DNA of 64,000 bases from an uncultured Gemmatimonadota bacterium (GCA_951812955.1 OX638340.1:512001-576000), one strand, 5' to 3'. Shown: positions 8,271 to 50,421, counted from the stretch's first letter. Program-made: numbers and translations. Notes: a model not told the origin generated them from the letters alone.

Positions 8271-9014
8271 CTACGATTTCTCTCTGTCCTGTTCGGCCCT
8301 GGCCTTTGACAGTGCCGACGCGATTATTCCCGATGGAATCGCAATGACACCTAATCCGATCATCAGGAGGATGAATGTGAAAATCCTTCCCCCTCCGGTC
8401 ACCGGATATGTATCGCCGTAACCCACGGTAGTCAATGTTACAACCGCCCACCACAGTCCATCCAGCACCGAACCGAATTTACCTGGCTGTACGGCGCTTT
8501 CAAAATACCAGATTCCCGCCGCCGCCAGGTAAATCAGTATCACGGACAGGACTGCGAACATTATGATTTCTTCCTTCACGATGACGACGGCTCGCTGTAA
8601 TCGATCTACCGCCTGGTTGTATCTGAACAGTCTGATAATCCTGAAGATACGCAATACACGAACGACGCGAAGTATTCGGCCGTCGACGTAACCAAAGCCG
8701 ATCAACATTAGGTAAAATGGCAGGATAGCTAACAGATCTATGATTCCATAGAAACTAAAAACATATTGCGTTCTGTTGTATGCAACAAAGCATCGCAAGC
8801 AGTATTCGAATGTGAATAACACGACGGTAATGGTTTCCACTAAATGGAGGAAAGACTGAGTCTGGCCGGTTATACCAGGGATTGTTCTTAACGTAAATGT
8901 GATCAGAGATAACAAGATCATGCCAAGTATGAAATCGTCAAACGTACGGCCCTGCCATGAGTCTCGACGTTCGACCACATGCCTGATTCGTTCAATGTAT
9001 GTTGTCTGGTTCAT
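8271..9014 (-). CDS. Voltage-gated potassium channel (6TM ion_trans family, KvAP-like)
   Basis: Selectivity filter TLTTVGYGD. S4 voltage sensor with Arg at every third position (RVVRVLRIFRIIRLFRY). GGAGGGAAGG Shine-Dalgarno sequence. Confidence 0.85.
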   Translation of the reverse strand: MNQTTYIERIRHVVERRDSWQGRTFDDFILGMILLSLITFTLRTIPGITGQTQSFLHLVETITVVLFTFEYCLRCFVAYNRTQYVFSFYGIIDLLAILPFYLMLIGFGYVDGRILRVVRVLRIFRIIRLFRYNQAVDRLQRAVVIVKEEIIMFAVLSVILIYLAAAGIWYFESAVQPGKFGSVLDGLWWAVVTLTTVGYGDTYPVTGGGRIFTFILLMIGLGVIAIPSGIIASALSKARAEQDREKS

Positions 9015-9190
9015 GTCCTTCCCTCCAGGTCTGGATTCACGTCCAGGACAGTGTGAACGCGTTTCTCACCCTCGTCGATTACGAATATGTCCTTGTCTAT
9101 GAAGGTCGGTAACCGGTTAAGTGGCCGGGGCGACTGCTGCAGAGCGTGGATCGAACTTGGTGAAATCGATTGTTGCACTTGGGGTTACAA

Positions 9191-12100
9191 CTAACACTCA
9201 GCCACGGCTCGTGGATTCAACCCCTCCAACAACGTGTCGATCGTCTGACTGATGGCGGTCTCAGACTGCAAGGTCTCGACCGGAATCGACACGTGCAATC
9301 CTGCCTCGATCCTGTTTCGTAACTCCACGGCCATGAGGGAATCCACGCCCAGGCTGCGCCAGGTCTGCCCGGTCTCCACGCTCCCTGGGTCCACTTCCAA
9401 GATCCGGCTGATCGCATCGGTCACGAATTCCTCGATGTAGTCGCGCATTATGTCAGGGGATAGCGCGCTCAGATCGGCTTTCGATAGGGGTGGAATCGCC
9501 CGTGTCGCCTGCGCTCCGCGAACATCCGGTGGCAGGAACCGGGCAAGAAGCGTATCTGCTTTTGGCTCAGTCGTGGGGATTACGCCGACGCGGTGGACAT
9601 CGCGACGGAGTATTCGATCAAGCAGCGCGCCTGCCTCATCGGGCGGGATCGATCGCAGGCCCTGCCGCCTCATACGATCGACGGCTCGTTCGTCGGTCAT
9701 CATGCCCGTATCTTCCCAGGGCCCCCAGTTTACTGTCGTCACCGGCAGACCCTCCTGACTCCTGAGGTCCGCCAGGCCGTCGAGAAACGCGTTCGCAGCG
9801 GCGTAGGATGCCTGTCCGGCCGTACCGAGCAGGGAGGCCACCGACGAAAAGAGGACGAAGAGGTCCAGTTCGCGGTCGCGGGTAATCGCATGCAGGTTCC
9901 ACGCGCCGACCGTCTTGGGTTCGAGTACCCGGCGGAACCTTTCCGCATTCTGGGTGAGCAAAATGCCATCGTCCAGCACGCCGGCCCCGTGGAAGACGCC
10001 CCTGACCGGTCCGTGCTCGATTTCCAGGCCTGCCAAGAGACCTTCCATCGCATCACGCTCGGTCGCATCGGCCTGAACGTACTTCACTTTGCCGTTGGGA
10101 TCACTTTCCAGTGACGTATCCACATGATGTCTTCGCCCCGTCACGACGACCAGGCCGGCTCCCCGGTCGAGTAGCCAACCCGTCAGGAAGCGGCCGATCC
10201 CACCCGCGCCGCCCGTGACGAGGTAGGTTCCGCCCGGACGAATGATCGGATCATCTTCTCCCAGGGCAACAGGGACGGACGCACCGTCGTCTACGAGCAC
10301 CAGTTTGCCCATGTGCCGCGCCTGCGACATGAACCGGAAGGCATCCCGCGCCTCGGCAAGCGGGTATGCATGGTACGGCAGGGGACGTATGCTGCCATCC
10401 GCAGCCAAGTCGGCGATTTTCTGTAGCATGGCGCCCGCACGGTCCGGCTGTTCCTCGATGAACTGTGCAAGATCGATGGGATGATAGGATTTGTTGCGGT
10501 CGAACCGGTTGAGATCGATGAGTCCATGGTTCAGCACATCGGTTTTGCCGATCTCAATGAAACGTCCGTGGGGCGCAAGTACGGCCAGAGAAGCCATCAT
10601 GGCGGGACCAGACAGTGTGTTCAGGACGATATCCATTCCCTTCCCGTCCGTCTTCTCAATGATCTCTTCTGCGAAGTCCAGGGAACGGGAATCCATCACA
10701 TGCGAAACGCCTATTTCCCGCAGAAAGGCTCGTTTTTCATCAGATCCGGCCGTGGCAAACACCTCGGCCTCTGCCTGACGGGCGAGTTGAAGAGCGGCCA
10801 GCCCCACCCCTCCTGTCGCGTTGTGTACAAGAACGCGGTCGCCGGCGGATATTCCGCCACGTACCACGAGCCCGAGGTATGCCGTCAGGAAGGCCACGGG
10901 CAGCGTAGCGGCTTCTTCGATACCCAGGCTATCCGGCTTCCGGACGACCAGGGCGGCCTTCGCGGTCACGTAACCGGCCATGGCCATCGGCACCATGCCC
11001 ATGACCAAATCACCGACTTCCACAGAGTCAGTCCGGCTTCCGCGTGCAACCACCTCGCCGACGCATTCCCAACCGAAGGAAGGTGGACGCGGCAATGAGG
11101 CTCGCAGCATGCCGAGGGCGGTAAGTACGTCCCTGAAGTTCAGCGCGGTTGCCTGCATGCGGATGACGACCTCGTCCGGTGCTGGTTCACGCTCCCGCTC
11201 CGACACAAAGTGGAGATCGTCAATCGAACCGGGCGTCGACTGTGTAAGTCTGTAACTGGTATTAAAATATGAAGATGCGGAAACACGCTTCGCTTTGGTG
11301 TTTGACAGGTCTAACGGAACGAGACGACGGGTATACAGCTCGGTCTCCCGTACCGCGATCTCGCCGGTCAGTTTGTCCGCGGCCACGATACAGGCGAGAT
11401 GTTCCAAATCGATCTCGTCGGTTCCGGCTGGAAGGTCGATCATCGCACAGTTCAACTCGGGGTGCTCCTGCGCGGCGACCCGTCCGCATCCCCAGATCGT
11501 CCCGAGTTCCGGCTTCGACCGGTCGCCATCAACCACGGACTGGGCACCCGCCGTAATCAACCTCAGGCGGTACGACAGATCGGGACTGTCCAGCACCGCC
11601 CTGACCATTTCAAAGGATTCCAGCGCGGGGCCGGTATGTCGGTTCGACCGCCTGGCGCCTTTTCCAGTCCAGATTCCCACGACGCCGACCGGTTCCCCGG
11701 ATTCGGATCTCACTGAGCCCAGTCTGCCGGCGAGGGCGTCGGCCGGGCTTGCCTTGCACTCACTGGACGCATCGATGAATTCACTCTTCCCGCCGCGTCG
11801 AGCCAGGGCATTAGCCAGGCCGGTTCCGAGTCGCGGGTCCTCCGTAATCACGTACCAGTGCGATGTTGTGCCGGGTTCCACCTGGTCTTCCGGGATTGGC
11901 ATGGCCATCCAGGCTTCCCGGTAGATTCCCTGTGGGTTATCAAGGCCATGCCGGCCTGCGCCTGTCCTGAACAGACCCCCTCCTGCCCGGAACAGGGACA
12001 CGCCTTCCAGTTGTACCACAGGAAGGCCCTTGTCATCTACGAGGTACACATCGGCCAGCAGCCCACCGTCACTTGATTTCTCCCTCAGTCTGGCGTATGC

Positions 12101-15100
12101 AACCAGGACATCATGCTCGTCCGGAAGCTTCTGCAGCACAACGGTTTCCACGCTGACGGGCAGATGCGGATCGTCTTCAGGAACGAGCATCAGCAGGACC
12201 TGCAGACCGGCATCCAGAACACCGGGGTGCAGGCGGTAGGGATTCTGATCATCATCTCGTACGGCCAGGACGGCCAGGACTTCCCGTTCGGAGTACACAA
12301 GCTCGTCAATCTGGCGGAAGGACGGGCCGTATTGAAACCCCAGAGCTGCTGCGCGTTCGTAGAATCGACCGCTCGCGACCCGGCGGTCGCAACGGGATCT
12401 GACGGCTTCCAGTTCTACGCGTTCTGTTATCTCATCTACGCGGGTTCGTTCGGCTAGCATGTTTGACAGCCAGCTCGAACCAGTCTCCTGGGATTCCGGC
12501 CTGGAGGAAAGCGTATACCGGTTCTGCCTGCGTACAACCTGGACGAGATGTGCGCCGATATCTGGCAATAACAGGGGGTTCAGGAGTTCAAGGTCCCGAA
12601 ATGCGACTGGAGCATCCTCCTCGTCGAGGGTCTCGAAGAGCATTTCTATCTGCCCTGCGAGCGGCATGATCGATCGGTCCAGTACGGTGTGATCCGCCAG
12701 CATAGGATGGGAGTCCAGGCTAATCGGCCGTTCCCACACGAAGGTTTCGGGGTCCACGGACGATTCGATGCCGGTACCGATCAATGGGTGCGGGTACTGG
12801 CTTCGCGGGCCACCCGGTTGATTCGTCATCCCGTCCAACCAGAAACGTTCCTTCTGCCAGGGATAGGTCGGCAACGGAACAGGAGTTCTCGGTGGATCCA
12901 CCAGGTGTTGCCATCGTATATCGTGGCCGTGGACGTAACATTTCGCCATGGCTTCGAGCAGGACGTCCCAGGTTCCGCGGTCTCGTCGTAGCGAGGCAAC
13001 CGCGTGCCCCGTCCAATTCAGATGAGCCAGGTTTTCATATATGATCGTCGAAAGCACGGGATGAGGGCCGATCTGGACGAACAGCGCCTCTCCGCCATCT
13101 GGAATCGCTTCGAATGAACGGCTGAACAGGACGGGACTCCGGATATTTCGCCACCAGTGATCCGCGTCGAGGTCCATTCCTTCAACCCGCGTACCCGTGA
13201 CCGTCGAGAACAGAGGTACGTGGGATTTCGAGGGAGACAGTCCATTCAGGGACGCCAGGAAATCGTCGCGGATCCCGTCCATTTGCCTGCTGTGATAGGC
13301 GATATCCGTATGTAGTTTGCGGCAGAAAATCCGTCGTCCATCCAACTCCGCCTGTAACCGGTCGATAGCCGCGGTCTCCCCGGATATGGTCACGGAAACC
13401 GGACTGTTGACCGCAGCAACGGACAGGCTGTCTCCGAAGGGTTCTATGGCCTCTTCCGCCTCGTCCGGCGACAGGCCCACCGCAAGCATCTCGCCCCGTC
13501 CCTGCCACGCCTTCTGCAGCCTGCTGCGCTGGTATATGATGCGAACGCCCTCTTCCAGGGAAAGGGCGCCCGCGACACAGGCTCCGGTGATTTCCCCGAC
13601 GCTGTGGCCAATGACGAACCGCGGCTCAATACCAAAGGACCGCCATAGGGCCGCCAGGGCCCACTGCAGCGCCATGTTGGCGGGCTGAGCGATCTCGACG
13701 CCGGTGATGCGCTCCCCGGCTGCACCGCGCCACATCTCATCCTTAATGGAATTTCCCGCAGCTGCCGAGTACAGGCGGTCGAACTCGTCCAGGGCTTCGC
13801 TGAACGGGGGCGCCGAATTATAGAGCGCCCGCCCCATACCGAACCACTGCGGCCCCATGCCGGTGAAGACGAAGACGACAGGTGTGGGATGCGATCCGAC
13901 ACGTGCCGTCTCGAACCGATCTGGGATGCCGCCTGCACGAAACGTCTCAAGGCCCTGCGCCGCCCCCCCGGCCTCCTCGAACACCAGGCCAAGGCGGTGG
14001 TCCAGATGGGACCTGTACAGGGCGAGCGCGGCCGCCAGATCGTCGGGTGGCGTATCGGGTTGGCTTCGGAGCAGAGATACTGTATCCGACGCCTTTTGCT
14101 TCAGCGCGGCGGCGTTATGGGCGGACAGGACCAGGAGCCGGGTAGCGCGCTGATCGTCCGTACGGCACGGGTCGGACGTGCCGGGTGAACCGCCCGATTC
14201 GACTTCCGCCGGGCCAGGCGGGGATCCCAGCACCACGTGGGCGTTGGCACCGCCGAATCCGAAGGAATTAACCCCGGCGTAACAGGATACGGGGATGTTT
14301 TCCGGTTCGGTGACCACCTTTAGCCCGAGCGCTTCAAAGGGTATATCGGGGTTTGGCTGATCGAAATGCAGGGAGGGCGGCAGGACGCCATGTTTCAGGG
14401 ACAGCGCTGTTTTGATGAGTCCGGCGACGCCGGCCGCCGCCTCGGCATGGCCGATATTGGTCTTCACCGACCCGATCAGGCAACCGGTGGATCCCGTGGC
14501 ACGGCCGATGGCCATGGCTTCCACGGGGTCGCCAGTGGGCGTTCCCGTACCGTGAGCTTCTACGAAGGCCAGGCGTTGCGCGTCCACGCCACCGGCCCGG
14601 GCGGCCGACTCGATGACGGTTTGCTGAGCGTTCTGGTCAGGTACGGTAAGCCCGCGCCCTTCCTGGCCACGCCCGTCCTGGTTTATCGCGGAGCCGAGAA
14701 TGACCGCGTAGATCGGATCGTCGTCCTCCACCGCGTCGGACAGGCGTTTCAGCACGACGATTCCCGCGCCGTCGCTCCGTCCGTACCCGCTCGCCCCCTG
14801 GTCGAAGGCCCTGCAGCGCCCATCCGGCGACAACATTTGCGCCTGTTGAAAGCCGCGCGTCGTCTGCGGAGTCAGGAGGAGATTCGCGCCACCGGCAAGT
14901 GCGGCCGAACAGATACCGGCCTGTATATCCCTGCAGGCCAGGTGAACGGCGGTCAGCGAAGAAGAACAGGCCGTATCCACCGCGATACTCGGGCCCTTCA
15001 GATCCAGGAAGTAGGAGATCCGGTTCGCCGCGATACTCAGCGTGCCACCCGTATTGGTGTGCATGCCGACGGCTGACGGCGCCGCGTACCGCTGCAGGTC

Positions 15101-15478
15101 CCAGTATTCGTCCAGGAAGATCCCCATGTACACGCCAACGGGCCGGCCTTCAAGCTTCGCCGGCGGAATCTGCGCGTCTTCCAGCGCTTCCCAGGCAAGT
15201 TCGAGCAGGACGCGCTGCTGGGGATCGATGTGGCGGGCTTCCCGTGGCGAGATATTGAAAAACGCTGCGTCGAATCGGTCGATCTCGTCGACGAACCCGC
15301 CATGGGCGGGATAGTCTTTATGGCCCGTCCACGGTTCCCACAGCGATTTGCGCTCATCCGGCACGGCGCGTATGGCGTCACCGCCGTTCAGGACGAATTC
15401 CCAGAAAGATCGGGGCGAAGATATCTCCCCGGGAAAACGGCAGGCGATACCTGTTATGGCAATGGGTTCACCGGACAT
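9191..15478 (-). CDS. Type I polyketide synthase, single fully reducing module KS-AT-DH-ER-KR-ACP, no thioesterase or reductase release domain
   Basis: KS: IAITGIACRFPG, DTACSSS, HGTGT. AT: GHSVGE. DH: HPLIGTGIESSV...P. ER: MDR-type GGVGLAALQLA. KR: LVTGGAGGIGRFLTGWL. ACP: LGVDSLMAVELRN. The start overlaps the preceding gene by 11 nt. Confidence 0.9.
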   Translation of the reverse strand: MSGEPIAITGIACRFPGEISSPRSFWEFVLNGGDAIRAVPDERKSLWEPWTGHKDYPAHGGFVDEIDRFDAAFFNISPREARHIDPQQRVLLELAWEALEDAQIPPAKLEGRPVGVYMGIFLDEYWDLQRYAAPSAVGMHTNTGGTLSIAANRISYFLDLKGPSIAVDTACSSSLTAVHLACRDIQAGICSAALAGGANLLLTPQTTRGFQQAQMLSPDGRCRAFDQGASGYGRSDGAGIVVLKRLSDAVEDDDPIYAVILGSAINQDGRGQEGRGLTVPDQNAQQTVIESAARAGGVDAQRLAFVEAHGTGTPTGDPVEAMAIGRATGSTGCLIGSVKTNIGHAEAAAGVAGLIKTALSLKHGVLPPSLHFDQPNPDIPFEALGLKVVTEPENIPVSCYAGVNSFGFGGANAHVVLGSPPGPAEVESGGSPGTSDPCRTDDQRATRLLVLSAHNAAALKQKASDTVSLLRSQPDTPPDDLAAALALYRSHLDHRLGLVFEEAGGAAQGLETFRAGGIPDRFETARVGSHPTPVVFVFTGMGPQWFGMGRALYNSAPPFSEALDEFDRLYSAAAGNSIKDEMWRGAAGERITGVEIAQPANMALQWALAALWRSFGIEPRFVIGHSVGEITGACVAGALSLEEGVRIIYQRSRLQKAWQGRGEMLAVGLSPDEAEEAIEPFGDSLSVAAVNSPVSVTISGETAAIDRLQAELDGRRIFCRKLHTDIAYHSRQMDGIRDDFLASLNGLSPSKSHVPLFSTVTGTRVEGMDLDADHWWRNIRSPVLFSRSFEAIPDGGEALFVQIGPHPVLSTIIYENLAHLNWTGHAVASLRRDRGTWDVLLEAMAKCYVHGHDIRWQHLVDPPRTPVPLPTYPWQKERFWLDGMTNQPGGPRSQYPHPLIGTGIESSVDPETFVWERPISLDSHPMLADHTVLDRSIMPLAGQIEMLFETLDEEDAPVAFRDLELLNPLLLPDIGAHLVQVVRRQNRYTLSSRPESQETGSSWLSNMLAERTRVDEITERVELEAVRSRCDRRVASGRFYERAAALGFQYGPSFRQIDELVYSEREVLAVLAVRDDDQNPYRLHPGVLDAGLQVLLMLVPEDDPHLPVSVETVVLQKLPDEHDVLVAYARLREKSSDGGLLADVYLVDDKGLPVVQLEGVSLFRAGGGLFRTGAGRHGLDNPQGIYREAWMAMPIPEDQVEPGTTSHWYVITEDPRLGTGLANALARRGGKSEFIDASSECKASPADALAGRLGSVRSESGEPVGVVGIWTGKGARRSNRHTGPALESFEMVRAVLDSPDLSYRLRLITAGAQSVVDGDRSKPELGTIWGCGRVAAQEHPELNCAMIDLPAGTDEIDLEHLACIVAADKLTGEIAVRETELYTRRLVPLDLSNTKAKRVSASSYFNTSYRLTQSTPGSIDDLHFVSEREREPAPDEVVIRMQATALNFRDVLTALGMLRASLPRPPSFGWECVGEVVARGSRTDSVEVGDLVMGMVPMAMAGYVTAKAALVVRKPDSLGIEEAATLPVAFLTAYLGLVVRGGISAGDRVLVHNATGGVGLAALQLARQAEAEVFATAGSDEKRAFLREIGVSHVMDSRSLDFAEEIIEKTDGKGMDIVLNTLSGPAMMASLAVLAPHGRFIEIGKTDVLNHGLIDLNRFDRNKSYHPIDLAQFIEEQPDRAGAMLQKIADLAADGSIRPLPYHAYPLAEARDAFRFMSQARHMGKLVLVDDGASVPVALGEDDPIIRPGGTYLVTGGAGGIGRFLTGWLLDRGAGLVVVTGRRHHVDTSLESDPNGKVKYVQADATERDAMEGLLAGLEIEHGPVRGVFHGAGVLDDGILLTQNAERFRRVLEPKTVGAWNLHAITRDRELDLFVLFSSVASLLGTAGQASYAAANAFLDGLADLRSQEGLPVTTVNWGPWEDTGMMTDERAVDRMRRQGLRSIPPDEAGALLDRILRRDVHRVGVIPTTEPKADTLLARFLPPDVRGAQATRAIPPLSKADLSALSPDIMRDYIEEFVTDAISRILEVDPGSVETGQTWRSLGVDSLMAVELRNRIEAGLHVSIPVETLQSETAISQTIDTLLEGLNPRAVAEC

Positions 15479-16295
15479 GACTCAGGGGTCTTCGAAAGGT
15501 CCATTCGGCGTTTCCGTACCGGGTTCTGACCAGCTCCTCGGTCGCGTGCCGTTCTTCATCGTTCAGCACGTCCCTTCGTCCTTCGAGGTTGAAATGTTCC
15601 ATGAACGACCGGGAAAGGCCGTCGGCCCATTCCTCGAAAGTCGGTAGACCGGAAGTCAATTCAGAAACGGTTATGGTCCGCTGATCCAGCAACCGGGCGA
15701 TGGTCTCCCGGCGTTGCTGGTCCTGGGAAGGTATCAGCAAAGGCAGTCTTTTGTGTCCCGGTCCCAGCAGGACGGATCCGTGGTGCAATACCCGTCCACC
15801 CGACCGGCGCTGGGCGCTTCCAGCCAGTTTTCTGCCTCGCGCTGTAATCTCGTAACGTCCCGTGGCCGTGAAGCATACGTCGCTATTGCCTCCAATGCCA
15901 CAGCTTGCTTCCAGCGCCGGATCTGCCGGGATTCCGAAGTGCCGTAACGTCCTGGCCAGCGCTTCCCCGGCCCCGCGGAACATAGCGCCGGACAGGGTAT
16001 TCATTGCGGGATGGGATTCCGGAAACACCAGGCTGTACGTCAGTTCCTGGTCATGCAGCACCGTGCGCCCACCGGTGATCCGGCGGACCAGGTCGATGCC
16101 ATACCGGTCGCATCGGCCGGGGTCGACCTCGTCTTCCACGTCTTGTCCATATCCGACGGACACAGCCGGAGGATGCCATGTGTAGATGCGCAGCGTCATC
16201 ATCTTCGTGTCCCGCCGGCACGCGCCGAACAGCGCTTCATCGACGGCCATGTTGTAAGCGGCGGAACACCCGGGGGAGGTCAGTATGCGGATCAT
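15468..16295 (-). CDS. Lipoate-protein ligase / octanoyltransferase family protein (BPL_LplA_LipB catalytic domain; LipM/LplA-like)
   Basis: NMAVDEAL motif, RRITGGRTVLHD motif (cf. LplA RRxSGGGAVxHD) and GRKLAGSAQRR (catalytic Lys motif). The start ATG overlaps the rnc stop (ATGA). Confidence 0.75.
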   Translation of the reverse strand: MIRILTSPGCSAAYNMAVDEALFGACRRDTKMMTLRIYTWHPPAVSVGYGQDVEDEVDPGRCDRYGIDLVRRITGGRTVLHDQELTYSLVFPESHPAMNTLSGAMFRGAGEALARTLRHFGIPADPALEASCGIGGNSDVCFTATGRYEITARGRKLAGSAQRRSGGRVLHHGSVLLGPGHKRLPLLIPSQDQQRRETIARLLDQRTITVSELTSGLPTFEEWADGLSRSFMEHFNLEGRRDVLNDEERHATEELVRTRYGNAEWTFRRPLSHVR

Positions 16296-17119
16296 GACCC
16301 TTCGCTGTCCCGGGCGGACTGCAACCGCTCTACTGCCTGCCGCGCCGCGTCCTGCTCCGCGTTCTTCTTGCTGGTTCCGGTGCCTTTGCTGACGGCGTTT
16401 CCGGCTACGAAGACCTCGATTGTAAAGACTTTCTCATGGTCGGGGCCGACGGCGGAATCGATGCGGTATTCCGGCTGCCCGATGCCTTCGCCCTGCGTAA
16501 ATTCCAGCAGCGCGCTCTTGTAGTTGCGCGAGTCATCGTCATCGGTGGGACGTTCATCGTTCAGTTCCTGCAGCAGGGTTCGATGCAGGAAGCGCCTGAC
16601 CGGCTGCAGCCCGCCGTCCAGGTATATGGCGCCGATGATGGATTCGTAGGCGTCAGACAGGATCGAGTGGCGAAAACGGCCGCCTGAACGCGCTTCGCTG
16701 GAACTCAGCAGCACGAAGCGCCCGAGTTTCATTTCCCGGGCCTGCCGGGCGAGCGCCTTGCGGTTAACCAGCGTGGAACGGAGCTGCGTCAACTGCCCCT
16801 CGCGGCACCTCGGGTACTTATCGTATATGAACTCGCCCACGACGAGATCCAGCACCGCGTCGCCCAGGAACTCCAGCCGTTCGTTGGAGTAAACTCCGGA
16901 CTGCTCCCGGGAATACACGTAGGAACGGTGTTTGAGGGCAGTTATCAGGTAATCGGGGTTCTTGAAACGGTAGTTGATATACTTCTGTACCTGGCGTGCG
17001 TTTTCCCGTTCGGCTGCGGTCCGGTTCACGGCGTTGCGGGATGCGCCGCGTTTCAGGCGGAAAAACAGGGTCGCGGCCACGCGCCGTAGTTTTTGCAGGA
17101 TAGGATGCCGTTTCGACAC
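16292..17119 (-). CDS. rnc: Ribonuclease III
   Basis: RNase III signature ERLEFLGDAVLDLVV, a C-terminal dsRBD and a GTG start. Confidence 0.85.
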   Translation of the reverse strand: MSKRHPILQKLRRVAATLFFRLKRGASRNAVNRTAAERENARQVQKYINYRFKNPDYLITALKHRSYVYSREQSGVYSNERLEFLGDAVLDLVVGEFIYDKYPRCREGQLTQLRSTLVNRKALARQAREMKLGRFVLLSSSEARSGGRFRHSILSDAYESIIGAIYLDGGLQPVRRFLHRTLLQELNDERPTDDDDSRNYKSALLEFTQGEGIGQPEYRIDSAVGPDHEKVFTIEVFVAGNAVSKGTGTSKKNAEQDAARQAVERLQSARDSEGS

Positions 17120-17158
17120 GGTAATCCCCGGAACACGTTCGAGGCGTTTCGGAGGACG

Positions 17159-18445
17159 TTACGCCGTGTACTTCTTTACCACGAGTGTTACGTTATGCCC
17201 ACCGAATCCGAATGAATTGGTCAAGGCCGCCCGTACTTCCCGTTCCCTGCCGGTGTTGGGAACGTAGTCCAGGTCGCAATCGGGATCGGGTACCTCGTAG
17301 TTGATGGTAGGATGGACGAAATCGCGGGCGACGGACAGTGTGGTCGCGATGAACTCTACTCCTCCTGAAGCTCCGAGCAGATGACCGACAAGTGACTTCG
17401 TGGAGCTGATGGCGAGACTTTTCGCGTGTTCACCAAAGACCTTTTTGATGGCCAGGGTTTCAATGCGATCGTTAAAGGGAGTGGACGTTCCGTGGGCGTT
17501 GATATAATCGATCCCGTCCGCGTCCAGCCCGGCGTTCTGCAATGCCAGTTTCATGGATCGCATAGCGCCTTCGCCGGATTCATGGGGCTGTGTGATATGA
17601 AAGGCATCCGCTGTCGCGGCGTAACCTGCCAGTTCGGCGTAGACAGTCGCATTGCGCCGCCGCGCGTGCGACAGGGTCTCGAGGACGACTATGCCCGCGC
17701 CTTCACCCAGGACGAATCCGTCCCTTTCGGCGTCGAAGGGCCGGCTGGCCCGCTCCGGTTCATCGTTGCGGAGTGAAAGGGCCCGCATATTGCTGAACCC
17801 GGCCACGGCCATGGGCGAAATGCTGGCTTCCGTGCCGCCGGTGATCATTACGTCGGCGTCCCCGTGCTGCAGGATCCGGAAGGCGTCGCCAATTCCGTGG
17901 GCGCCGCTGGAACAGGCCGATACCGTGGTGTAATTGGGTCCTTTCAAACCGTGTATCATCGAGATATAGCCGGGGGCCATGTCCGCGATCATCATCGGGA
18001 TGAAAAAGGGGCTCACGCGCCCCGGACCCTTGTTCACCAGGTTCGAATGCTGGTTCTCGAAGGTCCAAATGCCTCCGACGCCCGTACCCATGACCACCCC
18101 GATGCGTTCCCGGTCCTCTACATCGAGGTCCAACCCGGAGTCGTCGATCGCCATCTGCGCCGCAATGACCGCGTACTGGACGTTTTCGTCCATGCGCCGC
18201 ACTTCCTTCCGGTCGATGTAATCTGCCGCGTTGAAATCCTTCAACTCGGCGGCGATTTTCGCCGGAAAGGCGTCCACATCGAACTTGGTTATGGGCCCTA
18301 TGCCGCTTTGGCCGCTGCAAAGGGCATTCCAATAGGTATCGAGCCTGAGACCCACGGGGCTCAGGACGCCCATACCGGTGACGACTACGCGCTCGGCCAC
18401 GCCGATCCTCCCGAATTCAACCGGTCGCATTTCCAGGGACTGCAT
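17159..18445 (-). CDS. fabF: 3-oxoacyl-ACP synthase II (KAS II)
   Basis: RVVVTGMG, active-site Cys in TVSACSSG, and HGTSTP / NSFGFGGHN motifs. The true start may lie a few codons inside the track ORF. Confidence 0.9.
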   Translation of the reverse strand: MQSLEMRPVEFGRIGVAERVVVTGMGVLSPVGLRLDTYWNALCSGQSGIGPITKFDVDAFPAKIAAELKDFNAADYIDRKEVRRMDENVQYAVIAAQMAIDDSGLDLDVEDRERIGVVMGTGVGGIWTFENQHSNLVNKGPGRVSPFFIPMMIADMAPGYISMIHGLKGPNYTTVSACSSGAHGIGDAFRILQHGDADVMITGGTEASISPMAVAGFSNMRALSLRNDEPERASRPFDAERDGFVLGEGAGIVVLETLSHARRRNATVYAELAGYAATADAFHITQPHESGEGAMRSMKLALQNAGLDADGIDYINAHGTSTPFNDRIETLAIKKVFGEHAKSLAISSTKSLVGHLLGASGGVEFIATTLSVARDFVHPTINYEVPDPDCDLDYVPNTGREREVRAALTNSFGFGGHNVTLVVKKYTA

Positions 18446-18473
18446 AGGAACAAGGACCGGGCCTTGAGATGAA

Positions 18474-18704
18474 TCAGCCGTCTACATTGGCCTGGAGATA
18501 CTTGATCGCGTCACTAACCGTGACGATCTTTTCGGCGTCCTCGTCGGGAATCTCGAGATCGAATTCCTCCTCGAGCGCCATGACGAGTTCGACCGTATCG
18601 AGCGAGTCGGCGCCCAGGTCGTCGGTAAACGAGGCATTGTCGGTAACCTGGTCACCGTCAACGCCAAGTTGCTCGGCGATGATCTCCTTTACGCGATCTT
18701 CCAT
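18474..18704 (-). CDS. acpP: Acyl carrier protein
   Basis: [19 protein letters not shown] phosphopantetheine-attachment motif. Re-started at the ATG at 18704 (MEDRVKEII), preceded by AGGAGG. The track ORF has a 19-aa artefactual N-terminus. Confidence 0.9.
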
Positions 18705-18791
18705 CTTCTTTCCTCCTGTCCGTATGAATTGTTGGCTTTCTTGACTACATGTTGAAATCAAATTCCCGCTTCAGTTGCGAATGATCTATTT

Positions 18792-18870
18792 GTTTGCTCG
18801 ACTGTTTGCTCAATTGTGAGCTCGACGGTGAGCTCAATTGTCTGCTCAACTGTCTGCTCGTTCGGTTTGC
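18792..18870. promoter_or_regulatory. Six tandem 12-bp units rich in short palindromes (GAGCTC, CAATTG) in the acpP upstream region
   Basis: Units TTTGCTCGACTG / TTTGCTCAATTG / TGAGCTCGACGG / TGAGCTCAATTG / TCTGCTCAACTG / TCTGCTCGTTCGG read directly, 90-165 nt upstream of the acpP start on the minus strand. Confidence 0.5.
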
Positions 18871-18887
18871 TGTAGATTGTTTTGCAC

Positions 18888-19631
18888 CTACATCCCCATG
18901 CCGCCGTCGACACGCATTACCTGCCCCGTGATGAAGGCGGCGTCGTCGGACGCCAGGAACGTCGCGATGCCGGCCACGTCGTCGGGTTGCCCGGCCCGGG
19001 ATAACGGTGTGGCGTCCAGGAACGCGGCCCGCACCGTTTCGGGAAGCGACTCCGTCATGGCTGTTTCGATAAACCCCGGTGCGATCGCATTGACCGTGAT
19101 CCCCCGGCTTCCGACCTCCTTCGCCACCGACTTGGTGAATCCGATGATACCAGCCTTGGAGGCAGAATAGTTGGCCTGTCCCGCGTTACCCGTGAGGCCG
19201 ACGATCGAGGTCATATTGATGATCCTGCCGCTCCGCTGTCTCATCATTTGCCGGATGACCGCCTGGGTGCAAATGAACACGCCGCCCAGGTTGACGTGCA
19301 TGACTTCGTCCCAGTCGGCCTGTTTCATACGCATCAGCAGCGTGTCCCGGACCGTGGCCGCGTTGTTGACCAGTACGTCGATGGAACCGTAAGTCTCGAC
19401 CACGCCGTCGATCAGGTCTTTCACGCTGTCCCGGTCGTCTATGCGAACAGCCAGGCCTCGGGCTTCGCCACCTTGTTGCTTCAGCGCTTCGGCGGCTTCC
19501 TCGGCCTTGGTCCCGTCGCGGCTCGTAATGATTACCCGGGCGCCTTCTGCGGCGAACCGTTCGGCGACGGCGGAACCGATCCCCTGCGCTCCGCCCGTAA
19601 CGACGGCAACTTTGCCACTTACGCCGCGCAA
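18888..19631 (-). CDS. fabG: 3-oxoacyl-ACP reductase
   Basis: KVAVVTGGAQGIGSAV, NNAA motif and YSASKAG. TTG start with AGGAG 10 nt upstream. Confidence 0.9.
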   Translation of the reverse strand: MRGVSGKVAVVTGGAQGIGSAVAERFAAEGARVIITSRDGTKAEEAAEALKQQGGEARGLAVRIDDRDSVKDLIDGVVETYGSIDVLVNNAATVRDTLLMRMKQADWDEVMHVNLGGVFICTQAVIRQMMRQRSGRIINMTSIVGLTGNAGQANYSASKAGIIGFTKSVAKEVGSRGITVNAIAPGFIETAMTESLPETVRAAFLDATPLSRAGQPDDVAGIATFLASDDAAFITGQVMRVDGGMGM

Positions 19632-19673
19632 ATCAGGAACTCCTGTGGATAACTGCAGTTTAGCGCTCTGTCA

Positions 19674-20633
19674 TTACCGTTCTACCGCGAGCTGACCGAG
19701 CGTTTCTACTGCTGAAGACACGTCCTCTAGCTTGTCCGCATTCAGGATATTGACGCCTCGGTGCATTCTTTTCATGAGACCCGATAGTACGTTGCCCGGT
19801 CCGGCTTCCACCACCGTGTCCACCCCCCGGTCGGTCAGGGTCTGCATCGATTCCGCCCAGCGAACCGGGCTGGTCAATTGCTCGATCAACAGGCGGCGAA
19901 TTTCATCGGGCTCCGACACGATCCGGGCAGTCACGTTCGCAACCACAGGCGTTTTCGCTCGGCAGATGGAGGCCTTTTCGATCGCCTCCGCAAGATCCCG
20001 CCGCGCGTATTCCATGAGTTCGGAATGAAAAGCACCGCTGACCTTGAGCGCAACGACCTTTTTGGCCCCCGCCGCGCGAGCGTTTTCCATGGCCCGTTCC
20101 ACGGCCGGTACGGCTCCGGCGATGACCGTCTGCTTCGGCGAGTTGTAGTTGGCGGATTGAACGGGTTCGCCTTCCTCACTCGCAGACCGGCAGACTTCAT
20201 CGACTTCCAGCGGTGAAAGACCGATCACGGCCGCCATGGTGCCCGGCCGTTTTTGCCCGGCCTCGTGCATCAATCTACTGCGCAGGTGAATCAGGCGCAC
20301 CGATTCCTCGAATGAGAGTGAACCCGCGGCGACCAGCGCCGCGTATTCTCCCACGCTGTGTCCGGCGACGTAATCCGGATGGATCCCGTGCTCGTTCAGC
20401 TGGGACGCCACCGCCACGCTGTGCACCAGAATGGCCAGTTGCGTGTAATTCGTTTGCTTCAGGGTTTCCGCAGGGCCGTCAAAGGAGACTCCGGCGATAT
20501 CGGCGCCGGTGATCTCACGGGCCTGCCGGTACAGCGTCTGAATCCGAGGATACCGGTCGTGCAGGTCCCGTCCCATGCCCACGTACTGGGAAGCCTGCCC
20601 CGGAAACAAGAATGCGATCCTGGCTTGGGTCAT
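19674..20633 (-). CDS. fabD: Malonyl-CoA:ACP transacylase
   Basis: AFLFPGQASQ, GHSVGEY active-site serine and FHSELM motif. Confidence 0.9.
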   Translation of the reverse strand: MTQARIAFLFPGQASQYVGMGRDLHDRYPRIQTLYRQAREITGADIAGVSFDGPAETLKQTNYTQLAILVHSVAVASQLNEHGIHPDYVAGHSVGEYAALVAAGSLSFEESVRLIHLRSRLMHEAGQKRPGTMAAVIGLSPLEVDEVCRSASEEGEPVQSANYNSPKQTVIAGAVPAVERAMENARAAGAKKVVALKVSGAFHSELMEYARRDLAEAIEKASICRAKTPVVANVTARIVSEPDEIRRLLIEQLTSPVRWAESMQTLTDRGVDTVVEAGPGNVLSGLMKRMHRGVNILNADKLEDVSSAVETLGQLAVER

Positions 20634-20651
20634 GGATTGGCGGCGCCGAAC

Positions 20652-20834
20652 CTATATCGCTTCGACTTCCTGCACTTCCCTTCCCTGATAATATCCGCAA
20701 TGAGGACAAACACGGTGCGCGCGTTTCTTCTCTCCGCAATGCGAGCATTCCACCAGTGCCGGCATCGACAGTACCCAATGCGTACGTCGTTTACGACTCC
20801 GTGTCCGTGACTGGCGTCGCTTGGGCAGAGCCAT
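20652..20834 (-). CDS. rpmF: 50S ribosomal protein L32
   Basis: [20 protein letters not shown]... with CxxC...CxxC zinc ribbon. Start placed at the internal ATG at 20834 with GGAGG Shine-Dalgarno sequence. The track ORF is extended upstream. Confidence 0.85.
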
Positions 20835-20836
20835 TT

Positions 20837-21358
20837 CTATTCCTCCTTCAGCAACGTTTTCAGTGTGTGCCAGCGCGGGTCCTCTTGCCGCGTACCACAA
20901 TCGCAGGTGCCCTCGTTGAGGTTTCTGCCGCATTCGGCACAGAGGCCCTTGCAGTCATCGCTGCACAGGGGTTTCATCGGTAAGTTCAGGTTTACAAGTT
21001 CCGCGATGCGCCGGCGTAGATCAATCGTCTTCGCGCCGTAGTCCAGTATTTCCACATCGTCGGATTCGGTCAACTCCTCGCCCTCGGGTATGGCGCGGTC
21101 GGTCTTCTCGTAATAGGTCGCGATTTCGCCGCTGATATGTTCCTTCATGTCTTCAAGGCACCTGCCGCAGGAGAAGGCCAGATCGACACCTATGTCCGCC
21201 TGCAGCACCAGCGAATTCTCGGATACCGTGAGCGTGCCATCCACCTTAACGGGTGACGCGAATCGGCAGTCTTCGTCCGGTAGAAAGTCGGCGGCGGGCA
21301 TGTCTTCTATATGGATGGGATGTAGACCTTCGGACAGATGCTCGATCGCAATTTGCAT
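20837..21358 (-). CDS. yceD: YceD/DUF177 family protein (23S rRNA accumulation protein)
   Basis: Sits immediately upstream of rpmF in the conserved position. Acidic protein with a C-terminal Cys cluster ([23 protein letters not shown]). Confidence 0.8.
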
Positions 21359-21506
21359 ATCGGCTGCTTGTTCAGTATCGCTCGATCAGACTTCACACGC
21401 GTATCCCGTACCACGATCCGGATGTTGCCAGGCTTTCCGTCAATTGCCCGGAAGCCATTAATAATACGAGGGTTACCCCAGTCATGTCAAGAGGAAAATC
21501 CCCGGA

Positions 21507-30873: not shown

Positions 30874-31866
30874 ATGAGCTACCAGCTAACGGATAGTTTC
30901 GGCCGAACGATCAACAACCTGCGGGTATCCGTAACGGATCAGTGCAATTTCCGCTGTATTTACTGCATGCCCGAAGTTGGGATGATCTTTCAGCCGCGGG
31001 AAGAGATCCTGACCTTCGAGGAGATCACCCGTTTCGTCGGGATCGTAACGGAACTCGGCATATCCAAGCTGCGGTTGACCGGCGGGGAGCCTACCGTTCG
31101 AAAGGATCTTCCGGTGCTGTTGCGCATGCTGGCGGCTGTCCCCGGCGTCCAGGACATGGCCATGACGACCAACGGGTTCCTGCTGAAGAAGATGTCGCGG
31201 GACATGTTCGAGGCGGGGTTGCCGCGGATCAACGTCAGCATGGATTCGCTGGACGAAGAGAAATTCAAGGAGATGACCCGCCGGGACGTCCTGCACAAGG
31301 TGCTGGATGGACTCGATGAGGCGACCCGGTATTTTCAGTTGCCGATCAAGATCAACGTGGTCGCCATGAAGGGATACACCGAAGACGAACTGCTGGATTT
31401 CGCGGAATTGGCGCGGACCGGCCCCTACCAGGTACGTTTCATCGAGTTCATGCCCCTCGACGCAGACCGGTCGTGGACCCGGGACCAGGTGCTGGACGGC
31501 GCTGAGATCATCGAACGGATCGGGGCGCGGTGGCCCCTGGACGCGGTGAAGCGTCCGGACCAGCGGGAGCCGGCCGACCTGTTCCAGTTCAGAGACGGCA
31601 AGGGCGAGATCGGTCTCATCGCATCGGTGAGCGAACCCTTTTGCAGCAGCTGCAACCGCATACGCATCACGGCGGACGGCAAGCTTCGGACCTGCCTGTT
31701 CTCGATTAATGAAACGGACATCAAGGCGTTGCTGCGAGGTGGCGCTTCCGATGGCGATATTGCCGAGACAGTCATCGAAGCGGTGCGCCACAAGGAGCCG
31801 GGGCATCACATCAACGAACCCGACTTCGTCCAGCCGGAACGGACCATGTCCTCCATCGGCGGATAG
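30874..31866 (+). CDS. moaA: GTP 3',8-cyclase, radical SAM, molybdenum cofactor biosynthesis
   Basis: CNFRCIYCMP radical-SAM cysteine triad, C-terminal CSSCNRIRITADGKLRTCLF second cluster and GGEPT motif. Confidence 0.9.
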   Translation: MSYQLTDSFGRTINNLRVSVTDQCNFRCIYCMPEVGMIFQPREEILTFEEITRFVGIVTELGISKLRLTGGEPTVRKDLPVLLRMLAAVPGVQDMAMTTNGFLLKKMSRDMFEAGLPRINVSMDSLDEEKFKEMTRRDVLHKVLDGLDEATRYFQLPIKINVVAMKGYTEDELLDFAELARTGPYQVRFIEFMPLDADRSWTRDQVLDGAEIIERIGARWPLDAVKRPDQREPADLFQFRDGKGEIGLIASVSEPFCSSCNRIRITADGKLRTCLFSINETDIKALLRGGASDGDIAETVIEAVRHKEPGHHINEPDFVQPERTMSSIGG

Positions 31867-32031
31867 CACGAAAGCAGTCATACAATACAAAAGTAGCGCC
31901 TGTGTGAAGGCCACTTTAACCGGATTGAACGAATTCAGAACCTGAGCGTATGTCAGAACCTGAATTGTCCGGGCGCACGAGCGTCTAACTCGGCGCCCGG
32001 TACCGTTTCCCAAAGTCTGCAGGAGATCATC

Positions 32032-33213
32032 ATGAGTCAGCGGTTGTCATCTCAGGAACTCCTCGCCCAGGTCAAGGGCGAAGTGAAAGAGATGTCCATG
32101 GAAGAACTCAAGGAGCGGCTTGACCGGAAGGACGACCTGGTCTTGATCGACGTACGAGAGCAGGACGAGGTCGACCAGGGCGTCATCGTTGGGGCCACCC
32201 ATATTCCGCGAGGTTTTCTCGAACTCAGAATCGAAAACACCGAAAGCGACAGAGACCGGGAAATCGTGCTGTACTGCGCGGGCGGCAACCGCTCGGCGCT
32301 GGCGGCGCAGTCCCTCGAGGCCATGGGGTACACCAATGTCATCTCCATGCGGGAGGGCTACACCGGTTGGAACGCTGCCGGTTTTCCCACGGTCCAGGAA
32401 CGCGCTTTGAGCAAGGAAGAGCGCCTGAGGTACTCCCGCCACCTGATCGTGCCGGAGATCGGCGAGCCCGGTCAGGTAAAGATTCTCGAATCGAAGGTGC
32501 TGCTGGTGGGCACGGGGGGACTGGGTTCTCCATCGGCCTACTATCTCGCGGCCGCCGGTGTGGGCACCATCGGACTCATCGACTTCGACGTCGTCGACGT
32601 GACCAACCTGCAGCGGCAGATCATCCACGGCACCTCCGACATCGGCCGTCCCAAGGTGGTCTCGGCCCAGGAGACGATCAACGACCTGAACCCGGACTGC
32701 AACGTGGTTCTCCATGAAACCCGGCTCATGGCCGAGAACATCATGGACATCATCAAGGACTACGACATCATCGTCGACGGGTGCGACAACTTCCCTACGC
32801 GGTACCTGGTCAACGACGCATGCGTGCTGGCCGGCAAGCCGAACGTCCACGGCAGCATTTACCAGTTCGACGGCTACGCCACGGTATTTCATCCCGCGAA
32901 GGGACCCTGCTACCGCTGTCTCTACCCCGAACCGCCGCCGCCCGGCGCCGTACCGAGCTGCGACGAAGCCGGGGTGCTCGGAGTCCTTCCCGGCACGGTG
33001 GGGCTTATTCAAGCCACCGAGACCCTCAAGCTCATACTCGACGAGGGCGATCCGCTCATCGGGCGGATCCTGATGTACGACGCATTGGACATGACCTTTC
33101 AGACCTTTAACGTTCAGAAGGATCCCTCCTGTCCCCTCTGCGGCGAGAACCCCACGGTTACCGAGTTAATCGACTACGAAGCCTTCTGCGGTTTCGCGCC
33201 GGCCGCCGGCTGA
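32032..33213 (+). CDS. Rhodanese-MoeB/ThiF fusion (sulfur-carrier adenylyltransferase with N-terminal rhodanese domain)
   Basis: Residues 20-120 form a rhodanese domain with active-site loop CAGGNRS. Residues 120-393 form a ThiF/MoeB domain (GTGGLGSP, two CxxC zinc motifs CYRC and CPLC). Confidence 0.85.
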   Translation: MSQRLSSQELLAQVKGEVKEMSMEELKERLDRKDDLVLIDVREQDEVDQGVIVGATHIPRGFLELRIENTESDRDREIVLYCAGGNRSALAAQSLEAMGYTNVISMREGYTGWNAAGFPTVQERALSKEERLRYSRHLIVPEIGEPGQVKILESKVLLVGTGGLGSPSAYYLAAAGVGTIGLIDFDVVDVTNLQRQIIHGTSDIGRPKVVSAQETINDLNPDCNVVLHETRLMAENIMDIIKDYDIIVDGCDNFPTRYLVNDACVLAGKPNVHGSIYQFDGYATVFHPAKGPCYRCLYPEPPPPGAVPSCDEAGVLGVLPGTVGLIQATETLKLILDEGDPLIGRILMYDALDMTFQTFNVQKDPSCPLCGENPTVTELIDYEAFCGFAPAAG

Positions 33214-47607: not shown

Positions 47608-49014
47608 TTACTGCTTGATGAGTGGCTGATACAGTTCAATGAGTCCGGCTATGTGACTGATTGTGTTCCTTGAGATAGAATTATCCTCGTAGTGGTTGAC
47701 AAGTCGTAATATCTCTTCGATCCTTCTGTCGTCTGGTCTGCCCGTTCTGCTAGAGATGTTATCCAAAGGAGGACCAAGCGCCCCTTTTTCTTCGGACTCA
47801 AAATAACGACGCAGTTCGTATACAGAAACACTCATAGTACCTTTTACATCTGCGTTTTGCATCTTACGATCGGTTAAGTAAACAAATGTCTCTAACTCAT
47901 TAAGATTGTTATTTTGGGTGTCATTCAGATCAAAATTGGCAATTAATTCGTCAATGCGGTTCATTAACTCATACCCTTTTTTATCCCCTCGAACGAATGC
48001 GCGATAAAGCGATGGGTCATGTAACCGTAGCGTAACAAGCAAACTCAGTATAACTGCTCGAAGTGGTTCCCCCTCTTCTATGGATGCTCTTACAAAGGCG
48101 ATTGACCTAATGCATTGTTCGATATCACGAAGTGAAAAACCAAAACAACTGCAGAGAATTGGAAAAAACTCGCGGAACCAATCAGAATCCAATGAATGGT
48201 CTTTGAAAAACCTATCCAACAAATAACGATTAACTAAATGCCTACAATAGGCTTCCGGGTCGATTTCAGGTAAAGTAAACGTAAAATCAAAAAACCGTCT
48301 CAAGTAAACATCTGAATCGATTTTACCATAAACAGACTGGAATGATTTGCATAACTCATCTCGATTGATTCCAAAAATGAAAACCAAACCTGGTATCTCA
48401 AATATGTGTTTAACCCGTTCCAAGAGTTCTATCGCAAAAGTAGGTCTACAACGGTCAAGTTCATCAACAATAAAAACCAGAGGATGCTTGGTTTCTTCCC
48501 TTACTTGAGTAGCAAGTTTTTCGAGATGTTTTCTTAAATCATCACGTTTTTTAACAAGGCTTTCATATCTGCCAAGTACATTGGGGGAGAATAGCCTTCC
48601 CAAGTCCCATCCAGTCGTCCCCTTAACCACAGTGAGCAACCCTGATATCAATCGTCCCCCGTGTTTCTGAATCAGCTTAATTGCACAATTGTATTTACTA
48701 TCATTCACTTGATCTGTCAGTTGTCCAAGAATCGAAGCTAAGGGGTCATCGCCAAAGTCATCATTCCACGCGTTTATATAGACACTTTCAAATCCTCGGT
48801 TTTGAAGATCTTTCTGCCATCGCTTGAGAAAGAACGTCTTACCCGTTCCCCAATCTCCATGTAAACTTACGATAAGGGATGGTCTTTGGGCCTGAACAAG
48901 ATTCGTCAATGTATTCGCAACTTCGGCTCTGCTCATTACATCATCTATCCAGGGGTCCTGTACGTTAATCACAGGTTCTGGGACCTTTAGGATTTTTCTG
49001 TTATCTTCGTACAA
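47608..49014 (-). CDS. KAP-family P-loop NTPase
   Basis: Walker A LHGDWGTGKTFFLKRW and Walker B region FIVDELDRCRP (the DxxDRC hallmark of KAP NTPases). The whole gene is markedly AT-rich relative to its neighbours. The start is TTG at 49014, or an internal ATG 26 codons downstream. Confidence 0.75.
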   Translation of the reverse strand: MYEDNRKILKVPEPVINVQDPWIDDVMSRAEVANTLTNLVQAQRPSLIVSLHGDWGTGKTFFLKRWQKDLQNRGFESVYINAWNDDFGDDPLASILGQLTDQVNDSKYNCAIKLIQKHGGRLISGLLTVVKGTTGWDLGRLFSPNVLGRYESLVKKRDDLRKHLEKLATQVREETKHPLVFIVDELDRCRPTFAIELLERVKHIFEIPGLVFIFGINRDELCKSFQSVYGKIDSDVYLRRFFDFTFTLPEIDPEAYCRHLVNRYLLDRFFKDHSLDSDWFREFFPILCSCFGFSLRDIEQCIRSIAFVRASIEEGEPLRAVILSLLVTLRLHDPSLYRAFVRGDKKGYELMNRIDELIANFDLNDTQNNNLNELETFVYLTDRKMQNADVKGTMSVSVYELRRYFESEEKGALGPPLDNISSRTGRPDDRRIEEILRLVNHYEDNSISRNTISHIAGLIELYQPLIKQ

Positions 49015-50388: not shown

Positions 50389-50421
50389 ACGGGACAATAT
50401 ATGTGAAAATCGAAAGCGGCG

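Follow-up and report, generated by a model that had tools for sequence, protein, structure and literature searches.

A predicted FAS-like type I synthase behind a LipM-type gene in the fatty acid synthesis operon of uncultured Gemmatimonadota

Why should a large type I polyketide synthase (PKS) be encoded at the very end of a bacterial operon for housekeeping fatty acid synthesis? The question is raised by a 64,000-nucleotide stretch of DNA from an uncultured Gemmatimonadota bacterium (GCA_951812955.1 OX638340.1:512001-576000), hereafter called the window, in which nine closely packed minus-strand genes occupy positions 21358-9191 in the order yceD, rpmF, fabD, fabG, acpP, fabF, rnc, a LipM-type transferase gene and the PKS gene. 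An initial annotation of the sequence had proposed this order, and it was upheld when the gene families of the window were assigned by Pfam and NCBIfam profile searches; the comparison that followed covered the 64-kb window and 10-kb flanks of the corresponding loci in relatives. The answer that we favor, with a probability of roughly 55%, is that a housekeeping LipM and a fatty acid synthase (FAS)-like iterative synthase are co-expressed with the dissociated fatty acid synthesis system (FAS II), and that the synthase makes a lineage-specific chain for a membrane or envelope lipid. The parts are of known kinds, a LipM-type transferase and a PKS with the architecture of mycocerosic acid synthase (MAS), while their arrangement is apparently undescribed. 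The locus had been called unusual, which is true of the lipM-PKS extension; it is not true of the position of rnc after the fab genes, which is known in Bacillus (fapR-plsX-fabD-fabG-acpA-rnc) and which we also found in relatives that lack the PKS. The searchable literature yielded only generic mentions of type I PKS (T1PKS) clusters in marine Gemmatimonadota (PMC10469786; PMC11316326) and no account of a type I synthase joined to a FAS II-rnc-lipM operon.

All nine genes could be assigned to families. The operon begins with yceD (20837..21358; DUF177 or large-subunit rRNA accumulation protein; PF02620, E 4e-29) and rpmF (20652..20834; ribosomal protein L32, 60 aa; TIGR01031, 85 bits), the start of the latter having been reassigned from its translation and from relatives. 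These are followed by fabD (19674..20633; malonyl-CoA:acyl carrier protein (ACP) transacylase; TIGR00128, 321 bits against a cut-off of 261), fabG (18888..19631; 3-oxoacyl-ACP reductase; TIGR01830, 327 bits against 298), acpP (18474..18704; acyl carrier protein of 76 aa with a DSL motif; TIGR00517, 114 bits, and translation), fabF (17159..18445; 3-ketoacyl-ACP synthase II; TIGR03150, 632 bits against 494) and rnc (16292..17119; RNase III; TIGR02191, 241 bits). The products of fabD, fabG, acpP, fabF and rnc all exceeded the curated equivalog cut-offs of their NCBIfam models. The eighth gene (15468..16295; PF21948, E 4e-35) encodes a LipM-type acyl (octanoyl) transferase of 275 aa that consists of the catalytic domain alone, and the ninth (9191..15478) a single-module, fully reducing type I PKS or FAS-like synthase of 2095 aa, recognized by its Pfam domain order, its alignment with MAS and its motifs.

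The last three genes are joined by overlapping codons. The rnc stop and the LipM start share an ATGA, a 4-nt overlap within the junction sequence 'gggtcATGAtcc', and the LipM and PKS genes overlap by 11 nt (15468-15478), the PKS ATG lying 8 nt upstream of the LipM TGA. In a consensus scan the only strong sigma-70-like site was a putative promoter 5' of yceD (21461..21490, minus strand; TTGACA-18-TATTAT, 11/12 matches), in the interval that separates sucD from yceD; on the coding strand from there to the end of the PKS gene, a scan likewise limited to consensus revealed no convincing terminator. Both overlaps had been reported in the initial annotation, along with the view that the PKS belongs to the housekeeping FAS II operon rather than to a separate island. 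The overlaps, the lone 5' promoter candidate, the lack of a terminator in the scan and the conservation of the locus throughout a deep clade all bear that view out.

The closest relatives of both the 275-aa protein and the synthase came from metagenome-assembled Gemmatimonadota, beginning with a 99%-identical locus in 'Gemmatimonadetes bacterium APA_bin_41'. The order glpK-sucC-sucD-yceD-rpmF-fabD-fabG-acpP-fabF-rnc-LipM-PKS recurred in 13 further loci (L001-L008, L081-L083, L085, L086), one of which, L081, is a Tara Oceans metagenome scaffold, and a LipM-PKS pair was also kept at the contig end in L009. In all 14 PKS-carrying loci the LipM gene lies directly 5' of the PKS gene, with stop and start overlapping by 8-50 nt. 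Across these loci the PKS is the most variable and fastest-evolving gene, with identities of 38-88% compared with 73-99% for fabF; in the most distant relatives the PKS has fallen to 38-48% while fabF stands at 73-80% and sucD at 76-80%. The G+C content at the PKS locus is ordinary (~0.61). Since deep divergence is here combined with a fixed gene order and ordinary G+C, the sequences indicate that in marine and sponge-associated Gemmatimonadota the extension is of old date, has been passed on vertically as part of the operon and is not a mobile island.

These data also bear on the simplest alternative, namely that the gene encodes a type I PKS of ordinary secondary metabolism which happens to lie beside the fab operon. 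A reader of antiSMASH-based surveys would expect as much, as T1PKS clusters were reported to occur frequently among the marine orders of Gemmatimonadota, the host-associated clades being enriched in them (PMC10469786; PMC11316326), and both the rapid evolution of the PKS and the linker indels (155 nt) between near-identical strains would suit such an enzyme. However, the PKS keeps the same operon junction, with overlapping frames, throughout a deep clade to which a seawater-metagenome genome belongs; it is accompanied by no genes for tailoring, regulation, resistance or export; its base composition is ordinary; and there is no sign of mobility. We regard this alternative as unlikely. For genome mining there is a caution in this, in that a 'T1PKS cluster' counted as secondary metabolism in surveys behaves here like a core gene.

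Two of the PKS-carrying loci, L007 (JAJEEG010000006.1) and L009, are labeled 'Candidatus Latescibacterota'. The housekeeping genes of the L007 operon are 88-95% identical to those of the Gemmatimonadota window, and the phylum label may be wrong.

Relatives that lack the PKS revealed the order in which the extension arose. In L084 (CP070758.1, a 5.0-Mb chromosome) the order is yceD-rpmF-plsX-fabD-fabG-acpP-fabF-rnc-LipM, followed by unrelated genes; in L033 the LipM gene again directly follows fabF-rnc and is itself followed by oligopeptide ABC-transporter genes; and in L011 and L016 it also lies directly behind fabF-rnc. In a neighbor-joining tree, which is rough and carries no support values, the LipMs of PKS-carrying genomes formed one clade, sister to the fab-linked LipMs of PKS-less genomes. 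Since LipM follows fabF-rnc both with and without the PKS, it predates the PKS at this position. The comparison suggests that fabF-rnc-lipM is the ancestral state and that the PKS was probably added once, behind the operon's last gene. A gene appended at the end of an operon would become the neighbor of lipM in any case, and so the adjacency of the two genes argues little for a functional link between them.

We then considered what the 275-aa protein is likely to do. It has the catalytic fold of the LplA/LipB family (PF21948, E 3.8e-35, residues 12-231; PF03099, E 3.9e-15), with the Thermoplasma LplA catalytic subunit 2ars as its best match in the Protein Data Bank (E 3.7e-22). The protein ends with the catalytic domain and lacks the C-terminal accessory domain of LplA, no LplB-like open reading frame (ORF) adjoins its gene, and its scores with the ligase models of NCBIfam do not reach their cut-offs. 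The family has an invariant Cys141 and Lys156 (23 and 12 sequences, respectively), while Thermoplasma LplA has a Ser at the position of Cys141. Homologues from Firmicutes are 34-37% identical and have in common with it the signature ACF...GRKxxGSAQ; the closest of them (P0075 / L021, from Domibacillus) has its gene within the yqhG-yqhH-yqhL-yqhM synteny diagnostic of B. subtilis lipM. Orthology to LipM as opposed to LipL is tentative, the lipM synteny of the closest Firmicutes homologue being set against an identity of only 34-37%, in a comparison that included no LipL sequence. Cys141 aligns with Cys150 of the Domibacillus (Bacillaceae) YqhM/LipM orthologue, which we take to be the acyl-enzyme residue of LipM. 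In the LipL paralogue, Cys150 has been identified as the acyl-enzyme residue (10.1101/419234). By its motifs and domain content, then, the 275-aa protein is a predicted LipM-type, acyl-ACP-dependent transferase, and its site beside acpP and fabF fits octanoyl-ACP as its substrate.

This protein thus resembles B. subtilis LipM (YqhM, octanoyl-ACP:GcvH N-octanoyltransferase) in being a catalytic domain of about 275 aa that matches PF21948 and carries the Cys and the GRKxxGSAQ Lys, but its gene follows fabF-rnc in a FAS II operon and is translationally coupled to a PKS gene. It also differs in its probable coexistence with LipB in the phylum. LipM is widespread beyond Firmicutes, and although co-occurrence of LipB and LipM is described as very rare overall, 83% of Gemmatimonadota genomes were reported to encode LipA and LipB and 60% LipA and LipM (Table S4, PMC10332631), from which it follows that both transferases must often coexist in this phylum.

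The domains of the synthase are encoded, all on the minus strand, in the order ketosynthase (KS; aa 4-420, 14219..15469; DPQQR, DTACSS with Cys171, HGTGT and NIGH), acyltransferase (AT; aa 535-849, 12932..13876; GHSVGE, the conserved Arg, and IAYH at the HAFH/YASH position), dehydratase (DH; aa 897-1164, 11987..12790; HxxxDxxxxP and LDAGLQ), enoylreductase (ER; aa 1413-1728, 10295..11242; GGVG NADPH motif), ketoreductase (KR; aa 1750-1929, 9692..10231; GGAGGIG, the B-type LDD and the catalytic Ser, Tyr and Asn) and ACP (aa 2012-2088, 9215..9445; GVDSL, Ser2047). All catalytic motifs are intact. A spacer of about 250 aa between DH and ER has room for a pseudoKR only, and residues 5-2084 align with the M. 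tuberculosis MAS 9d2z (E 4e-285). The initial annotation had recognized the domain order of MAS and animal FAS and the want of a release domain; the Pfam matches and the end-to-end MAS alignment agree. Specifically, the KS begins at residue 4 and the protein therefore has no loading module, it ends at aa 2095, about 20 residues after the ACP, and Pfam searches detected no thioesterase (TE), reductase (R), condensation (C) or methyltransferase domain within it. The AT motifs GHSVG and [IV]AYHS are kept in 14 family members and resemble malonyl-type motifs, in that GHS is followed by a hydrophobic residue and the third motif position is aromatic, so the product chain is likely, but not certain, to be saturated and unbranched. 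The C-terminal tail, LKATSRT, was considered as a docking motif and rejected, as it varies among close relatives. In L001, which is 96.6% identical to the window at the nucleotide level over the fab operon, the KS-AT linker holds about 155 extra nucleotides (L001 12083-12239; window ~14213), and the rest of the PKS gene is only 91.5% identical.

A chain bound to the ACP of such an enzyme must be released, and the initial annotation had suggested that the LplA-like neighbor off-loads it, in which case LipM would collect the finished chain from the PKS ACP and acylate a lysine or some other amine with it. The lack of TE, R and C domains, the translational coupling of the two genes, and the use of acyl-ACP thioesters by the LipM family through a Cys intermediate (10.1101/419234; PMC10332631) are all compatible with this. 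The idea is weakened in that LipM precedes the PKS at this position, as L033, L084, L011 and L016 show, and no linked candidate gene for an acceptor was found. The acyl pocket of the LipM family, moreover, is built for C8, and in our alignment the PKS-carrying clade showed no pocket changes of its own. Synthases of the MAS type, for their part, usually rely on a dedicated PapA-type acyltransferase or on direct transfer. We therefore give off-loading by LipM very little credence.

By analogy, loading would be a better alternative than off-loading. The malyngamide cluster begins with a gene for a LipM homologue, MgcA, and the proposal has been made that this protein moves octanoyl groups from the octanoyl-ACP of FAS to the first KS (PMC10088813, citing Moss et al. 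2018). Its gene in Okeania, like the window's lipM, lies directly 5' of a KS-first PKS. The two settings nevertheless differ, because MgcA is described as a neofunctionalized copy in a dedicated cluster for PKS and nonribosomal peptide synthetase proteins, whereas the window LipM is the product of an ancestral operon gene, orthologous to the LipM of PKS-less relatives, and the window PKS is a lone, iterative, fully reducing module set in primary lipid metabolism. We know of no in vitro demonstration of the role of MgcA, so that the precedent is itself a proposal. Applied to the window, a MgcA-like mechanism would have LipM take octanoyl from AcpP as a Cys141 thioester and hand it to Cys171 of the KS or to the ACP thiol, after which the C8 primer would be extended to a long chain, with lipoylation perhaps retained.

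Several features would accord with a loading role: the synthase starts with its KS at residue 4 and has no loading domain, no gene for a fatty acyl-AMP ligase (FAAL) or other acyl-ligase lies nearby, lipM is directly upstream with overlapping codons in every PKS-carrying locus, the LipM of this clade keeps evolutionary pace with the PKS, and with LipB common in the phylum LipM could be free for another task. Yet LipM holds the same operon position in PKS-less relatives, where it is orthologous, and is not a dedicated paralogue; adjacency is expected without any functional link if a gene is appended at the operon's end; and an iterative FAS-like synthase can use its AT for self-priming. Marks of neofunctionalization specific to the clade were looked for around the active-site Cys loop and rejected, the loop being common to fab-linked LipMs with and without a PKS. 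We consider LipM-mediated loading a possible but tentative alternative, and the shuttling of octanoyl-AcpP from FAS II to the KS of the type I synthase, whether besides or instead of lipoylation, remains doubtful on this evidence. If true, it would be a second, independent and evolutionarily old case of LipM-mediated PKS priming, this time in primary lipid metabolism and throughout a lineage.

We also asked whether the locus belongs to a lipid pathway already described. The iterative synthases MAS, Pks2 and PpsC are nearest in architecture, being single modules of the form KS-AT-DH-(pseudoKR)-ER-KR-ACP, about 2100 aa long and without a TE, and the window PKS aligns with the Pks2 model of NCBIfam over its full length. 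It misses the equivalog cut-offs, however, with 1156 bits against 2400 for NF041183 (Pks2) and 1258 against 1740 for NF045894. Unlike MAS, it has GHSVG and IAYH in its AT in place of the methylmalonyl motifs GHSQG and YASH that are seen in the ATs of 6-deoxyerythronolide B synthase (DEBS); it has no FadD (FadD28-type FAAL) or PapA nearby, and it is set in a FAS II operon of a Gram-negative phylum. Neither the window nor the 10 kb flanking each side of the loci in relatives contained a FAAL or PapA partner, and Pfam scans of the conserved neighborhood, relatives' loci included, revealed no gene for a TE, FAAL, PapA-like protein, type III PKS or methyltransferase. Alkylresorcinol (ArsABCD) and heterocyst-glycolipid (Hgl) systems were rejected for want of a nearby type III PKS or other partner genes, and a polyunsaturated fatty acid (Pfa) system because the PfaA model scored 301 bits against a cut-off of 1010 and partner genes are missing.

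SupA and SwfA, the small single-module FAS-like PKSs of sponge microbiomes, are alike in general type. SupA, reportedly described by Fieseler and colleagues in 2007, is said to be KS-AT-DH-MT-ER-KR-ACP, with a methyltransferase (MT) domain; the window PKS had no methyltransferase match in Pfam, and identity with SupA was rejected. SwfA has the same domain order as the window PKS, KS-AT-DH-ER-KR-ACP, but carries DPQ[IV]R for DPQQR, an altered HGTGT, and GHSSGE, IAFH and QCALVEL motifs, and its gene is followed by swfB (R-ST) and swfC (radical SAM) (PMC3908369). Identity with SwfA was likewise rejected, since the window PKS has DPQQR, HGTGT and GHSVGE, and QCALVEL, swfB and swfC are all absent.

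Compared with the canonical cluster yceD-rpmF-plsX-fabH-fabD-fabG-acpP-fabF, the window operon keeps the order minus plsX and fabH, and has lipM and the type I PKS appended. Only 18 nt (20634-20651) separate the rpmF stop from the fabD start, and neither plsX nor fabH was found anywhere in the 64 kb by Pfam scans of the other large ORFs of the window and by tblastn with a Gemmatimonadota PlsX. The initial annotation had noted the absence of the pair and had also suggested that the PKS may stand in for FabH-type priming. In its broader form this would have the synthase replace a function of FAS II, either by FabH-like priming or as the main type I FAS. The distribution of plsX would agree, as it occupies the canonical place between rpmF and fabD in the PKS-less L084 (3408-4451), whereas every PKS-carrying locus lacks it there. 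The gain of the PKS may coincide with loss or relocation of plsX, which we take as a lead only, coming as it does from one informative PKS-less genome. In a search of a large protein collection with the L084 PlsX, all of the matches listed (at least 120) were at least 52% identical and all came from other groups, which is no evidence that the PKS-carrying genomes lack plsX.

For fabH the same comparison had the opposite outcome. The operon of the PKS-less L084 also lacks fabH, so the absence of this gene from the operon is not tied to the PKS, and the case for a FabH stand-in was correspondingly weakened. Moreover, fabD, fabG, acpP and fabF beside the PKS are kept at 57-99% identity across loci, indicating that FAS II is in use, while the PKS evolves far faster than these genes, unlike an essential core enzyme. 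The window represents ~1.7% of a genome of ~3.8 Mb, and fabH and plsX may lie elsewhere in it. Replacement of FAS II function is, in our judgment, improbable.

We return to a housekeeping LipM and a FAS-like synthase co-expressed with FAS II. The comparison shows the identities of the genes, their conservation and the succession of evolutionary events, from which we infer activities, primer, product and release route as follows. In the older state LipM, encoded directly after fabF-rnc, would have acted as its family suggests, as a housekeeping octanoyl-ACP:protein N-octanoyltransferase that takes C8 from AcpP-bound FAS II intermediates as a Cys141 thioester and delivers it to lipoyl domains; as LipM would draw its octanoyl from FAS II, the fab operon is a logical place for its gene. 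The ancestor of one clade then appears to have gained the KS-AT-DH-ER-KR-ACP synthase right behind lipM, where it has been kept since, with overlapping codons. Judging from motifs and architecture, the synthase would work iteratively, like type I FAS or MAS, condensing malonyl units and fully reducing each round to leave a saturated, probably unbranched chain on its own ACP; most likely it would extend an acyl primer derived from FAS II. Because it is predicted to be co-expressed with core lipid synthesis, and because no tailoring genes accompany it, its product would be a lineage-specific chain of a membrane or envelope lipid and not a secreted secondary metabolite. Release would be carried out in trans by an enzyme encoded elsewhere.

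Several observations weigh against this interpretation. Taken over its full length, the AT domain most resembles the methylmalonyl-specific ATs of DEBS, which leaves some doubt about an unbranched product. Many genomes of the phylum also encode LipB, so a LipM with housekeeping duties alone may be redundant. Among the PKS-carrying genomes, LipM sequences diverge faster than those of fabD or rnc, at about the pace of the PKS (in the L086/L082 pair, for instance, identity is 72% for fabD and 82% for rnc but 52% for LipM), whereas in PKS-less pairs, which are few and near saturation, fabD, rnc and LipM diverge to a similar extent. In this small sample the fast divergence of LipM could reflect a constraint that was relaxed or altered in connection with the PKS. 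Finally, no cultured member of the clade could be identified.

If the arrangement works as we propose, a widespread, uncultured marine and sponge-associated lineage runs a type I FAS-like synthase within its core lipid operon. An unrecognized class of membrane or envelope lipids would then be predicted, possibly of use as a biomarker. The locus would offer a natural test case for the exchange of acyl chains between FAS II and type I synthases, and with it a means of testing the priming of polyketide synthases by the LipM family, for which there is one unproven precedent.

Downstream of the PKS gene the window contains a 55-aa ORF (9011-9178), an ion-channel gene and a tRNA. The ORF and the ion-channel gene were considered as further parts of the operon and rejected, since L002 was the sole relative, of those compared, with an ion-channel gene behind the PKS, and L081-L083 and L086 have none. 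Farther away, a KAP-family P-loop NTPase and an AAA_14/DUF4143 ATPase (47608-50397, minus strand) are encoded in the only low-GC stretch of the window (0.47 against ~0.60), which looks like a small mobile or defense islet. An 803-aa ORF at 39305-41716 (plus strand) has a G+C content at third codon positions typical of coding sequence and no Pfam match. The window also encodes an indoleamine 2,3-dioxygenase family protein (62041-63225, plus strand; PF01231, E 4e-96), of a kind uncommon in bacteria. Genes for MoaA and a rhodanese-ThiF/MoeB protein of molybdenum-cofactor synthesis lie at 30874-33213 (plus strand), and synthesis of this cofactor has been reported as a trait of host-associated marine Gemmatimonadota (PMC11651109).

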